Virus record (IMG/VR): IMGVR_UViG_2627853701_000009
Direction: 5' to 3' (one strand)
DNA length: 64,000 bases
Source of the DNA: a virus
Lineage: Duplodnaviria > Heunggongvirae > Uroviricota > Caudoviricetes
Part shown: one piece after another, positions 15,001 through 18,000 of the stretch
How the letters are laid out: each line of letters begins with the position of its first letter
Numbering within the stretch: the stretch's first letter is position 1
Position numbers: made by a program

Positions 15001-18000
15001 GCCTCCAGCGCAGGAAGAATTTTTTCTTCCATCCACATATCCAGTGCCGAGTCCGGTTCTTTTGCCCTGAGAAAAACCTCAATATGCAGTGTCGCCTCCC
15101 AGGTTCCCTCATCAACGAACTCGTCAGCAGCAGACGCATCTGTCAGGTAAACAGCAACAGCAGGCAGTTCCTGTTCATCAATAAAAACCGGGCGACCGTC
15201 AAACCAGCTCACCCTCTCAGAAATATTTTCTTTCAGGGCAGACAGAACTGCCGCCCGTATTTCACGGTGTTTCATACACCCTCCCAGTCATTTTCTTTTC
15301 AGCACCAGGCGTAACTGATGCGTCATGGCTTTCATCATCTGCGCCGGTAATTTTTCCCGGTACATCCGGTCCCGTTCACGTTCAAAGGTTTCTGCCAGCG
15401 GTCCGGCAGTCGTAATCTTCACCACTTCGATCGGCAGACGGTGGCGTTTCGGCCTCCCTTTGCTGTCCGCGCCGGTGGATGATGATGCCCACGGCATACG
15501 CTGCATCACATGCCAGCGTCCGTTAGCCAGCCGGGTGATAAAGGCGTCCGGGATCCAGAAAGCTACCTTCGCCATGTGCTTGGCGTCATAGCAGACTGGC
15601 CGGTCAACCGGGTCAGCGAACTGCTTCCGTGGCGCATAGCACTGCCAGCTGAATAACACATCCCCGTCAATACGGCCCTCGCTGTACGCTTACCGAAAAA
15701 CAACTTTTTATCTTTTTGTTTCGCTCAAATTAGTATAAAAAGCCGAACAACAAACAATAAAAAACCATTAACATCAATAGATTATGATGGCTTCAATCTA
15801 AATAATAGGCTATATAATACTGCAAGACACAACACATGCTGTCACTATGAGTCAACTATTTAGATGATATTAGTGACCTGTTTCAGAGCATTAGCGCAAG
15901 GCGATTCTTTGTCTTCTTGCACTAATTTTTTATCATAAAAATGTTCCTAGCACTGGGCATCAATATCGCAGGTCAGAAAGAGCTCCTGGGGATGCGGCTG
16001 GCCGAAAATGAAGGGGCGAATTTCTGGTTCAATGTGCTGACTGAACTGAAAAACCGCGGTCTGAACGATATCCTCATCGCCTGTGTGTATGGCCTGAAAG
16101 AATTCCCGGAGGCCCGCATCCAGTTATGCATCGTGCATATGGTGCGCAACAGCATGCGCTTCGTGTCATGGAAGGAATACAAAGCCGTCACTCGCGACCT
16201 GAAAGCGATTAGCCTCCCACAGAAGAGGCAGGCCAGCAGGCACTGGAAGCGTTTGCTGCGGCCTGGGACTGCCGCTATCCGCAGATAAGCCGGTGCTAGC
16301 TGTCAAACTGGACTAACTTGGCGACGTTTTTCGCTTATCCGGCAGATATCCGCAAAGTGATCTACACAACGAACGCCATCGAGTCGCTGAACAGTGTGAT
16401 CCGGCATGCCATCAGGAAACGCAAGGTGTTCCCGACGGACGAGTCAGTAAAAAAAGTGGTGTGGCTGGCAATCCAGGCCGCGTCACAGAAATGGACAATG
16501 CCGTTAAGGGACTGGCGAATGGCAATGAGCCGCTTTATTATCGAGTTTGGTGACCGTCTTGACGGTCACTTTTAAGAAAAGGCATTTACACAGAATCCTA
16601 AACAGGCTCACAGGCCTCTAATCATCCACATTGTAAAGATCCTTTGTTGTAAGTAAGATCTGGTACCCTAATAATATCAAAAGGATTAAAATCATCACTG
16701 CATCCTTCCACGAGGCATTTCATTGCTCGTAGATCACCATATAGCTCTGAAGAGTGATGCGGACATAGCAGATTATAAACTTTACATTTCGAATCTTCTT
16801 TGCCTTGTCTACTTTCCTCAATTTTTACTTTCAATGAATGCAGAAAAAAAAGATCCCTGATATAACTATCCCTGTCCTCTATCGTCATTCCCGCCCTCAG
16901 CGCTCCGACAACCTCATCAGTATTTTCATTTCTCACCTCAAATACACTATTTCTCTTATCCATCAGCCCACTTACAAAAGCACTTAGCTCTTGAAAAATT
17001 TCCTCAAGCTCATTATTATTTCTGGCACATGAATATATAGAGACCATAACATCAAGTTTATCTTGTAATTCAGGAGAAAGAAAGTGATTATGATTAAGCT
17101 CACTTACTGATTCCGGAGTCGAAGGGTTACCTCTTCCTGATACATACATCCATGAATAAAGATTTGCTGAAGAACCACTTGTTGGTAACATATCAAAACC
17201 CCCTTAACAAATAAATCCATAAATATTATTGCAACTAATATATCTGGATAAAAATATTATATCTTACTTAATACTACACTAATAAGATCCAGCTTTCCTC
17301 CGTGATAAGATTGCATGACTTGATGTTCACTCCATGAAATATCAGAAACATTATAAGATGATATATCTATTGGATTAAATTCATTTCTCATACGATCATA
17401 TAAAACATTTGTTTCTGTTGTATCAACAAAAAGAATTCCTTTTTTCTCCAGTCTGTCAAACATATCGTAAATAGCCTGTTCAGCTTGTGCTGGTAATGAT
17501 GGAATATCCAAAAGAGATTCCCCATTTATTTTATTCATTCTAATACCAATAACATTTCCATTATCATTATATATTTTCTCTGCACTCCCGGAACCATAAT
17601 ACTGATTGAAACAACGAACTTCGCTTGTCACCTCTTCATGGCTTTGAGATATAGTAAACATCTTCAACACTTTTGTTGTATCTTCCATATCTTCATACAC
17701 GACAGCATTACCACCTTTACCAATAACATTACCTGGCACGGGTGATTTATTGTTGCTAACCCTCGGCAACTCTGATTGAGTATAATCCGCTGGAGGTAAC
17801 TCCGGCTGCGCATAATCCACTGGAGGTAAATCAGGTCTGTTCGAATGAACAGAGCCTCTTTCTATAGTCGTGCTCACTGGCGATGTATTCAGCATAGCCT
17901 CAATTTTTCTGCTAATCTCTCCCTTAGGCCATCCCAACCTGTGCAACAGATTAGTAAAACAACCACTATGACTTTCTCTTGTAACGCAAAACTTATTATC

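Follow-up and report, generated by a model that had tools for sequence, protein, structure and literature searches.

A probable lambda-type attR/sib remnant joined to a truncated IS1414 in the effector locus of an O157:H7-type prophage

The window analyzed here is a stretch of 64,000 nucleotides of Caudoviricetes DNA (IMG/VR record IMGVR_UViG_2627853701_000009). From left to right, the region of interest holds Z', the 3' part of tail gene Z (15288-15556, minus strand; Pfam Minor_tail_Z positions 116-190 of 190), the 3'-terminal 143 bp of the IS66-family element ISEc8 (15551-15693, plus strand), 247 bp of DNA of the phage lambda type (15694-15940), a fragment of the IS256-family element IS1414 (15942-16609, plus strand), and the effector gene nleF (16622-17191, minus strand). 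The 247 bp include one copy of an inverted-repeat element that the sequence-only reading had recognized in two copies and left unidentified. The two copies are real. The motif ATTAGTGACCTGNNNCAGAGCATTAGCGCAAGG has exactly two matches in the window, at 15869-15901 and 19547-19579, with none expected from shuffled sequences, and the segment 15862-15940 has a single partner in the window at 19538-19618. The repeat family extends over 15799-15940 (copy A) and 19477-19618 (copy B) with an identity of 77%. This element is very probably the remnant of a lambda-type att site together with the sib/tI hairpin that controls int, the repeated part corresponding to the lambda P1 site plus sib/tI. The outer left "arm" of the inverted repeat is the Int arm-type site P1, and the meaningful hairpin is the inner one.

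Copy A and its left flank (15694-15940) are collinear with the phage lambda attachment region at an identity of approximately 80%. For 15696-15940 against lambda 27529-27742 the identity is 80.6% (E = 2e-46), and this match agrees with the attP, sib and tI annotations in phage records. The leftmost part, at 15694-15729 (plus strand), finds its counterpart in the attR of a K-12 lambda lysogen, in the flank on the ybhB side, rather than in the P' arm of lambda; it is a B' arm, a host-derived flank from the ybhB/bio side of lambda attB, and it matches the sequence that lies downstream of ybhB in K-12 and in the listed E. coli genomes. The target-site duplication of ISEc8 makes up its first 8 bp, CGAAAAAC. 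The host flank measures approximately 36 bp in the window, and approximately 64 nt plus the 14-nt core when the ISEc8 insertion is removed. The B' variant typical of effector loci is GACACGAAAAAC with an 8-bp deletion. Next to the B' arm lies the att core, TTAGTATAAAAAGC (15730-15743, plus strand), which aligns to lambda 27724-27738 (annotated as misc_recomb) and has 14 nt as compared with the 15-bp core of lambda, one A of the A-run being missing. Because this core is one base off that of lambda, a phage that used it may have had a specificity other than lambda's. The P arm follows at 15744-15885 (plus strand), assigned by lambda homology and annotation. It carries the Int arm-type sites P2 (15834-15853) and P1 (15866-15885), which in the alignment match lambda 'int 2' and 'int 1', respectively, at 17 of 20 positions each and which both keep their central GTCACTAT / TAGTGAC motifs.

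A core collinear with a P arm that bears P1 and P2, with a bacterial B' arm on the opposite side, is the form of an attR site. Since the left flank matches the ybhB-side host flank and not the P' arm, copy A appears to be an orphan attR-type site of a lambda-Int-type prophage rather than an attP. The B' arm is the only bacterial arm that it contains, so copy A is not a complete attB with both arms, and a search of the window and of the FORC_044 genome for the B arm (ybhC side) or an attL partner returned only chance matches of 10 to 12 nucleotides. To look for the donor species of the B' flank, we scanned species-representative genomes for an exact 33-mer and obtained 0 matches; with a degenerate pattern, all sequences returned were Escherichia/Shigella of the K-12 type, and none was nearer to the effector-locus copy. 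The AT-rich attR/sib spacer, which carries no annotation in the RefSeq records examined, is thereby explained as an attR of the lambda type that has a B' arm from the host.

Copy B is of a different form. The region at 19334-19618 (plus strand), characterized by its match to HK022/Gally, by alignment and by folding, is an unsplit attP-type region (P'-core-P) with an intact sib/tI at approximately 19561-19611. It matches HK022/Gally in one contiguous block at 78-80% identity, running from the end of int through attP to sib. An int pseudogene (18593-19333; Pfam Phage_integrase) lies directly upstream, and no IS adjoins it. Copy B therefore keeps the full lambda order of int-P'-core-P-sib. Copy A likewise resembles the attP/attR and sib/tI region of lambda (and of HK97, HK022 and 434) in its 80.6% collinearity, in its order of core, P arm with P2, P1, hairpin and T-run, and in a hairpin sequence nearly identical to lambda's. 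Unlike lambda attP, it has the attR form, in which the host B' arm replaces P' and int. It also differs from lambda in lacking one A in the core, in having a stem mismatch, in having no cognate int, and in its location inside an ompW-integrated prophage rather than at gal-bio.

To the right of copy A, 15942-16609 corresponds to nt 620-1315 of IS1414, including transposase codons 183-402, as determined by blastn/tblastn, Pfam and RefSeq annotation, and is 86% identical to the full-length 1315-bp reference. The sequence-only reading had correctly described the transposase as truncated at its 5' end, although it placed the other end at 16575, whereas the IS remnant runs on to the right inverted repeat at 16580-16609. 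The fragment is the 3' 53% of IS1414; the missing first 619 bp comprise the left inverted repeat, the promoter and codons 1-182. The reference element has both inverted repeats (GAGCCTGT...) and an 8-bp target duplication, GACATTTC, while the window fragment has neither the left repeat nor its flank. Only the C-terminal part of the Mutator-type domain is present. A 115-amino-acid ORF from the ATG at 15941 matches Pfam Transposase_mut (PF00872) at positions 184-281 of 379 (E = 1.5e-21), and a second ORF at 16318-16575 matches positions 320-377 of 379 (E = 3.2e-13). In the part that remains, 24 bp are deleted in frame after 16109, the loss of 4 bp after 16210 shifts the frame, and a TAG codon stands at 16297-16299. 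Of the DDE triad, D166 belongs to the missing first 619 bp, position 232 has Y (TAT, 16088-16090) instead of D, and E339 is kept. RefSeq annotates the fragment as 'IS256 family transposase; frameshifted; internal stop; incomplete'. Because it lacks the left inverted repeat and has only one of three DDE residues intact, the fragment is predicted to be unable to transpose, and its ORFs would be pseudogenes.

The fragment also holds a remnant of astA (EAST1) in the -1 frame at 16110-16202 (plus strand), located by IS nucleotide arithmetic and RefSeq annotation. In IS1414, astA spans nt 788-904; the 24-bp deletion takes nt 788-811, so that the first 8 codons, including the ATG, are gone; RefSeq calls a 21-amino-acid 'EAST1 family' CDS at this remnant. 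Copies of IS1414/astA, those in O157:H7 included, are commonly decayed (PMC12585946), and the fragment fits the 'decayed IS1414' class of that report. As in IS1414 itself, the right inverted repeat is intact, the Transposase_mut domain is present and the astA frame is recognizable; unlike an intact IS1414, the fragment has lost 619 bp and the astA start and carries D232Y, the 24-bp and 4-bp deletions and the TAG.

The stop codon of nleF lies 12 bp from the right end of the IS1414 fragment. The same IS1414 right end adjoins a 93%-identical nleF in a divergent locus, where the element has another 5' truncation. This suggests that the insertion of the IS beside nleF is older than the junction seen in the window. 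The nearest alternative nleF locus, in 2011C-4251, likewise lacks an intact IS; its IS1414 stump is shorter still, and its flank is of the ykgJ' type. A pre-deletion state, whether an intact IS1414 beside nleF or a sib-b-region-nleF arrangement, was not found in the genomes compared.

The breakpoint between sib and IS1414 nt 620 lies at 15941/15942, as placed by blastn/tblastn, by alignment with lambda and copy B and by codon arithmetic, with an uncertainty of ±3 nt owing to a possible TGT microhomology. The ATG at 15941-15943 follows the repeat directly and consists of an A from the phage side and the TG of codon 183 (GTG). It would thus be an accident of the junction. The ORF that it opens (15941-16288) would not be expected to be translated, as it lacks a Shine-Dalgarno sequence and directly follows a terminator. 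These results bear out much of what the sequence-only reading had said of this point, namely that the element abuts an ATG with no spacer, that this ATG reads into the middle of an IS256-family transposase (Transposase_mut from position 184) that is itself frameshifted (the 4-bp deletion), and that the fusion is a rearrangement scar, IS1414 being cut at nt 620. The same reading had proposed alignment to a full-length IS256-family element, with transposase homology upstream of 15941 as the outcome that would count against it; when compared with full-length IS1414, the DNA upstream of 15941 gave only chance matches (E ≥ 0.13). We also considered a natural mosaic boundary at 15940/15941 common to lambda, copy A and copy B, which was rejected when a longer alignment revealed that lambda and copy B remain similar beyond this point. 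HK97 diverges a few bases before 15940/15941.

The sib-IS1414 junction is widespread. At least 80% of 15600-16700, with the junction, is held by 456 complete genomes, and the matches listed cover all 1101 bases at 100% identity. For 15696-17250, 402 genomes reach at least 80% coverage, including an O55:H7 genome with 99.6% over the whole query. The junction thus appears to be old. The region is an already known kind of decayed relic, an ordinary fossil that is unchanged in hundreds of E. coli O157:H7 genomes, and a dead IS fragment beside a dead att/sib, already a RefSeq pseudogene, would carry little weight alone. What is new appears to be that an effector locus holds a footprint of host DNA from the gal-bio side.

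Taken together, these observations make it highly probable that the locus joins an attR/sib remnant to a dead IS1414 within an effector locus. Two molecular fossils would lie end to end in a prophage of the O157:H7 type at ompW, within its exchangeable effector locus. The first (15694-15940) would be the right attachment site of a lambda-Int-type prophage, with B', core, P arm and sib/tI. As for the second, we infer that IS1414 first inserted 12 bp downstream of nleF and that a later, single illegitimate deletion removed its first 619 bp along with everything between IS1414 and tI. The locus would then consist of two phage right-arm ends, each with a tail-fibre 3' end, effector cargo, sib and att, in series.

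How the orphan attR came to be here is a separate matter, on which we hold one proposal tentatively, at somewhat under even odds. The site may be a footprint of effector-locus growth: a lambda-Int-type phage residing at lambda attB (chromosomal or in-prophage) would have carried the nleH-nleF cassette as cargo in its b region, and the cassette would then have moved into the ompW prophage with sib, the P arm, the core and approximately 64 nt of bio-side DNA (79 nt with the core). The order of cargo, sib, P, O, B' and host DNA is that of lambda-bio-type transducing genomes, which carry bio-side host DNA through aberrant excision, and phage DN1, a DE3-derived bio transducer, matches copy A over its full length, attR included. 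Unlike those transducers, the locus has neither a bio nor a ybhB gene and retains only approximately 64 nt of host DNA, and the route by which it arose is our reconstruction. Another explanation, which we regard as unlikely although it fares best among the alternatives, is that copy A was not carried in from gal-bio and is instead the attR of a phage that integrated at a lambda-attB-like sequence that the prophage already contained, which would make it a fourth 'attB-in-prophage' site, in the occupied state. The shortness of the host-homologous B' plus core (79 nt, approximately 83% identity) is consistent with this, as is its likeness to the 100-309-bp, 81-87%-identical host-derived attB segments of such effector loci (PMC8112680), and the order of tail-fibre 3' relic, cargo, sib, P, O and B' is that expected at the right end of an integrated phage. 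However, the window and FORC_044 yielded neither a B arm nor an attL partner, the rows examined contained no unoccupied B-O-B' of this variant, and the published survey (PMC8112680) lists no such site.

Like attB-in-PP_1 to _3 of that survey (Nakamura et al. 2021), copy A is short chromosomal att DNA of approximately 83% identity, located where an effector locus of PPompW ends, next to IS elements. It differs from them in its source, which is lambda attB (ybhB side) rather than yecE, ykgJ/ecpE or ompW, and in consisting of the B' half only, already recombined with a phage P arm. A lambda-attB-derived site in effector loci is not reported in PMC8112680. If the effector cassette was transferred as proposed above, copy A would represent a fourth, unreported class of host-derived att DNA beyond those of Nakamura et al. 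It would bear on a mechanism that PMC8112680 leaves open, the entry of host att sequences into phage genomes, for which the answer would be either excision of the aberrant kind or a series of integrations with a subsequent deletion between tail-fibre gene repeats. Stacking of phage right ends would have built the effector locus, and effector cassettes could take short stretches of host att-flank DNA with them.

We also asked what the hairpin of copy A may still do. The sib retroregulator/tI terminator (15883-15933, plus strand) aligns to the HK97 'sib retroregulation site' (21042-21091) and the O276 'terminator tI'; its GC-rich inner hairpin spans 15890-15926 and is followed by a T-run at 15926-15931. 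According to a passage of PMC5300877 that cites Schindler and Echols (1981), sib in an intact phage terminates transcripts from pI, and when it is read through from pL an RNase III site forms and the int mRNA is destabilized, which is retroregulation. No int gene lies upstream of the copy A hairpin, where the DNA consists of the B' flank and the ISEc8 fragment. A G-to-A change in the 3' stem arm produces a C.A mismatch and a weaker hairpin. The predicted fold of copy A is -19.1 kcal/mol (z = -2.1), a modest gain over shuffled sequences, 7 of 200 of which fold equally well, compared with -30.2 kcal/mol (z = -4.8) for copy B and -25.6 kcal/mol (z = -3.5) for lambda. A consensus terminator scan called neither sib copy because of internal stem mismatches and a long loop, and an Rfam scan of 15400-20000, with a library that holds no sib model, gave no match at E ≤ 1. 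The hairpin of copy A is most likely inert, and would be at most a weak terminator for read-out from ISEc8. It is improbable that it has been retained as a functional intrinsic terminator, or as an insulator, against antisense transcripts that enter nleF/nleH from ISEc8 or upstream effector genes. Its orientation is that of ISEc8 transposase transcription, it folds better than most shuffles, the ten O157/O111 genomes at the head of the listing all keep the hairpin and its 6-T run at 100% identity, and the 245-bp attR/sib segment is matched at 99% or more by 524 records. Nevertheless, the mismatched stem is weaker than those of the other copies, identity among O157 genomes would reflect recent common descent rather than selection, and the adjacent IS fragment, which is dead, is conserved to an equal degree.

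The break that removed module 1 appears to lie elsewhere, at 15551-15556. The 100% identity of Z' to the O157 Z/U region stops at 15556, and identity to FORC_044 is 99.9% from 15551 onward. A three-way alignment places a shared GGATCC (15551-15556) at this deletion junction, where Z' meets an internal point of ISEc8. GGATCC is also a BamHI/Sau3AI site, at which a chimera could have formed in a clone library. The ISEc8 piece, assigned by its identity to FORC_044, Pfam and RefSeq, comprises the transposase C-terminus (Pfam DDE_Tnp_IS66_C) and the right inverted repeat ...CTGTACGCTTAC, and RefSeq names it ISEc8 transposase. Relative to genomes of the SS17/TR01 type, approximately 37.8 kb are missing here. 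The Z'-ISEc8 junction occurs in 0 of 5,426 complete genomes, and exact look-ups of three ORFs spanning it found nothing on record. The map of the window is corrected accordingly, with ISEc8 involved at the module-1 breakpoint. The sequence-only reading had taken the fusion at 15941 for the scar between the truncated Z and the nleF/nleH cargo, and perhaps for the junction that removed the rest of module 1. That fusion is a genuine illegitimate junction only approximately 390 bp from the truncated Z, but it is very improbable that the truncation of Z and the loss of the rest of module 1 arose there, given that Z' ends at ISEc8 and that more than 400 complete genomes carry the identical 15941 junction. 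In both left contexts examined, those of FORC_044 and TR01, the DNA left of the junction is intact, with a complete ISEc8 followed by nleG, espM1 and ompW', and in TR01 the whole prophage is kept.

Least credible of all is that the element is a MITE or an IS256-type terminal structure linked mechanistically to the transposase fragment, as its inverted symmetry and its two copies, one touching an IS, might suggest, because it does not resemble the inverted repeats of IS1414, copy B has no neighboring IS, the homology continues 170 bp further left into the att arm, and, rather than the many dispersed, context-free copies with target duplications of a MITE, it is found at a median of one place per genome (range 1 to 6), at each of which it is collinear with the int-attP/attR-sib of lambdoid phages, and no copy flanked by target duplications was seen in a non-att context.

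Finally, ISEc8 itself appears to be a simple insertion into the att flank. In TR01, the 8 bp that form its target-site duplication are found at the other ISEc8 end as well. The ISEc8-free version is present at 100% identity in the genomes listed, with 249 genomes covering at least 80% of a 212-nt query, and 5415 of 5426 E. coli genomes match this query. As an attR-type site predicts, among the records listed the match at a prophage-free site comprises B' plus core only, at approximately 83% identity, and in lysogens it extends into the P arm.

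Copy A of the repeat (15862-15940) and its partner copy B (19538-19618) belong to a repeat family, 15799-15940 and 19477-19618, with 77% identity. A 33-nt motif of the repeat, for which no match is expected by chance, occurs in the window only at 15869 and 19547, confirming that there are exactly two copies. The sequence-only reading had left the repeat unidentified; alignment identifies it as a lambda-type att/sib/tI region. A blastn search of phage records with 15696-15940 matched phage lambda 27529-27742 (80.6% identity, E = 2e-46), as well as HK97, HK022-like, 434 and other phages, and the phage features matched are attP, the 'int 1/2/3' binding sites, the 'sib retroregulation site' and 'terminator tI'. 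On the plus strand, the alignment places a core, TTAGTATAAAAAGC, with one A fewer than that of lambda, at 15730-15743, the P arm at 15744-15885, the Int arm-type sites P2 and P1 at 15834-15853 and 15866-15885, and the sib/tI hairpin at 15883-15933, with its T-run at 15926-15931. Of the inverted-repeat arms described earlier, the outer left one (GATGATATTAGTG) corresponds to P1; the true stem is formed by ATTAGCGCAAGG and CTTCTTGCACTAAT. In lambda, the sib hairpin doubles as tI, the terminator for pI, and RNase III acts on its read-through form. The predicted folding energies are -25.6 kcal/mol for lambda sib (z = -3.5), -30.2 kcal/mol for copy B (z = -4.8) and -19.1 kcal/mol for copy A (z = -2.1), the lower stability of the copy A hairpin being due to a G-to-A change that leaves a C.A mismatch in its stem. 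According to a passage of PMC5300877 that cites Schindler & Echols 1981, lambda sib reduces Int expression from pL transcripts, an effect termed retroregulation.

Copy A directly abuts, with no spacer, an ATG at 15941 that opens the transposase reading frame, as had been proposed. We compared the DNA beyond it with the full-length IS1414 of plasmid NZ_CP029743 (L002 882-2196; 1315 bp, encoding a 402-aa transposase), which is flanked by 8-bp target duplications, GACATTTC. IS1414 nt 620-1315 correspond to 15942-16609 with 86% identity, and ORFs at 15941-16288 and 16318-16575 align with positions 184-281 and 320-377, respectively, of the 379 in Pfam Transposase_mut. The first 619 bp are absent upstream of 15942, and with them the left inverted repeat and codons 1-182, including the first catalytic residue, D166. 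The second catalytic D is lost through D232Y (TAT, 16088-16090), a 24-bp deletion (IS nt 788-811) after 16109 causes an in-frame loss in the transposase, a 4-bp deletion (IS nt 913-916) after 16210 shifts the frame, and a TAG in place of a Trp codon at 16297-16299 is a premature stop. These lesions, together with the match to C-terminal Transposase_mut positions only, bear out the earlier description of a truncated, frameshifted IS256-family transposase, which is dead. A tblastn search with the full transposase gave no convincing match to the DNA before 15941 (lowest E = 0.13), where such homology would have refuted the earlier reading. The ATG itself, composed of an A from the upstream sequence and the TG of IS1414 codon 183 (GTG), is an artefact of the junction. 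The right inverted repeat survives undamaged at 16580-16609, and the nleF stop codon lies 12 bp from its end. The embedded astA (EAST1) remnant at 16110-16202 lacks a start because the 24-bp deletion removed its first eight codons, including the ATG. Outside the prototype, decay of IS1414/astA copies is the rule, and the commonest of the inactivated astA variants clusters in O157:H7 (PMC12585946).

The sequence left of the core in copy A does not match the lambda P' arm; it matches B', the bacterial flank that a K-12 lambda lysogen has directly downstream of ybhB on the bio side, which makes copy A attR-type. Its B' flank is interrupted by ISEc8. In TR01, a complete ISEc8 lies between 8-bp duplications, CGAAAAAC, indicating a simple insertion, and removing ISEc8 in silico restored approximately 64 nt of B' homology. 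The reconstructed 212-nt ISEc8-free sequence is uninterrupted and 100% identical in E2865 and O111:H8 SF4-1, among the genomes listed; at least 80% of it is covered in 249 genomes, and it is matched in 5415 of 5426 E. coli genomes. Among the records listed, those without a prophage at the site match B' and core only (query 77-155, ~83%), which is their own chromosomal attB, and those with a prophage there match on into the P arm. This is the signature expected for a B'-O-P junction. Neither a B arm (ybhC side) nor an attL partner was found in the window or the FORC_044 locus. Copy A may have arrived through lambda-bio-like aberrant excision, or it may mark an occupied lambda-type attB within a prophage.

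What lies left of ISEc8 varies among O157 genomes. In TR01 (L005 4701-4800), the simple insertion with its 8-bp duplication is followed by nleG and espM1. In FORC_044 (L001 2798-3653), a second, inverted IS1414-like stump, 85% identical, abuts ISEc8 without target duplication, and DinI, int' and recE' lie beyond it; FORC_044 has therefore undergone an ISEc8-associated rearrangement.

Copy B directly follows an int pseudogene (18593-19333, Pfam Phage_integrase). An unbroken match to HK022 and Gally (78-80% identity) runs from the 3' end of int via attP to sib, so copy B is an unsplit attP. The sib/tI hairpin of this HK022/Gally-like module (18593-19618) is fully intact. The surrounding prophage integrates elsewhere, at ompW, so this int-attP-sib module is a captured relic.

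The junction between sib and IS1414 at 15941 is common to O157:H7 and O55:H7 genomes, with DEC5D (O55:H7) 99.6% identical over the whole 15696-17250 query, and an O111:NM genome also carries the 245-bp attR/sib segment at 100% identity. The IS1414 insertion beside nleF is older still, since in 2011C-4251 a 93%-identical nleF is accompanied, in the same place, by this IS1414 right end 12-18 bp away (L008 3895-4076), with a different left side: IS1414 is cut back to approximately nt 1156 and adjoins a ykgJ' fragment rather than sib. That divergent nleH-nleF locus lies between yodB and a tail-fibre gene, and its ykgJ' fragment is host DNA of the attB-in-PP_2 type. A possible 3-nt microhomology (TGT) at 15941 would fit an illegitimate deletion, which would have taken out IS1414 nt 1-619 together with the stretch separating tI from the IS.

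The fusion at 15941 had also been proposed as possibly the scar that removed the rest of module 1, the left prophage part ending in a truncated tail gene Z (Z'). This is not borne out. Identity to FORC_044 begins at 15551 and identity to the O157 Z/U region stops at 15556, both parental sequences containing GGATCC at this crossover; the real module-1 breakpoint is therefore 15551-15556, where Z' is joined to the ISEc8 transposase at an internal point. The 143 bp that end ISEc8 (15551-15693, Pfam IS66 C-terminal element) had been overlooked. The 123-aa 'truncated Z' ORF (15288-15659, minus strand) is chimeric, with Z only in residues 34-122 (Pfam Minor_tail_Z positions 116-190 of 190) and antisense ISEc8 in residues 1-33; on the opposite strand, 15510-15656 encodes the final codons of the ISEc8 transposase. 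Approximately 37.8 kb separate module 1 from the nleF locus in SS17 and TR01, where both have the same strand orientation, so the window carries a simple 37.8-kb deletion. The TR01 interval contains most of ISEc8, nleG and espM1, IS remnants, an ompW' fragment and an entire prophage early and head region. The Z'-ISEc8 junction is spanned in none of 5,426 complete E. coli genomes, and three ORFs that cross it have no entry in the protein-position index. Since the two sides meet at a BamHI/Sau3AI site, the junction may be a chimera from cloning or assembly. The sib-IS1414 junction, present in both O157:H7 and O55:H7, is much older than the window-specific deletion. The observed fusion and the dead transposase stand; the module-1 breakpoint does not, and the repeat had gone unidentified. 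No complete genome exceeds 99.2% identity to module 1 (1-15556; EC4115, TW14359, RM13322), whereas 15551-21000 reaches 99.9% with FORC_044, its only comparison reference, and 15600-16700 reaches 100% with all hits listed; the tail module of this strain therefore differs somewhat from sequenced relatives.

By strong nucleotide homology, both halves of the fusion belong to well-known entities, the lambda att/sib/tI region and IS1414. Both lack the functional hallmarks of these entities: copy A has no int upstream, an altered core and a mismatched stem, and 15942-16609 has no left inverted repeat, a broken DDE triad and a frameshift. The fusion is an ordinary fossil, already sequenced and largely annotated. 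Its surroundings are the exchangeable effector locus of the lambda-like ompW prophage (PPompW/Sp9 type) (Nakamura et al. 2021, PMC8112680). That study describes host-derived att DNA from yecE, ykgJ/ecpE and ompW, leaves the capture mechanism open, and does not mention ybhB, ybhC, bioA or sib in its text; a bio-side B' arm in a PPompW effector locus is the sole point that we could not find described.

Every E. coli O157:H7 chromosome listed matches the 1.1 kb at 15600-16700 from end to end with 100% identity, and 456 complete genomes contain at least 80% of it. RefSeq gives the order 'IS66-like ISEc8 transposase', 'IS256 family transposase (frameshifted; internal stop; incomplete)', nleF and nleH1-2. 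Some records also call an 'EAST1 family heat-stable enterotoxin' CDS; at the astA remnant this 'EAST1 family' CDS is 21 aa long, with a non-canonical ATA start. In the direction of the phage late genes, which is the minus strand, two phage right-arm ends follow one another in the locus: module-2 tail fibres, DUF1076, nleA, sib, attP and int', then a tail-fibre 3' relic (18207-18345), nleH, nleF, IS1414', sib, P, O and B'. The 139-nt tail-fibre 3' end is present three times (2205-2343, 18207-18345 and 22279-22417; 86-96% identity), each copy coming just before an effector cassette in the phage direction; the three are plausible recombination points for swapping cassettes. Past the module-1 tail-fibre genes, towards the left edge of the window, an NleH/OspG-like kinase ORF (549-1139) and IS1-like InsA/InsB ORFs (1315-2012), all on the minus strand, resemble another effector locus that has an IS of its own (549-2012).
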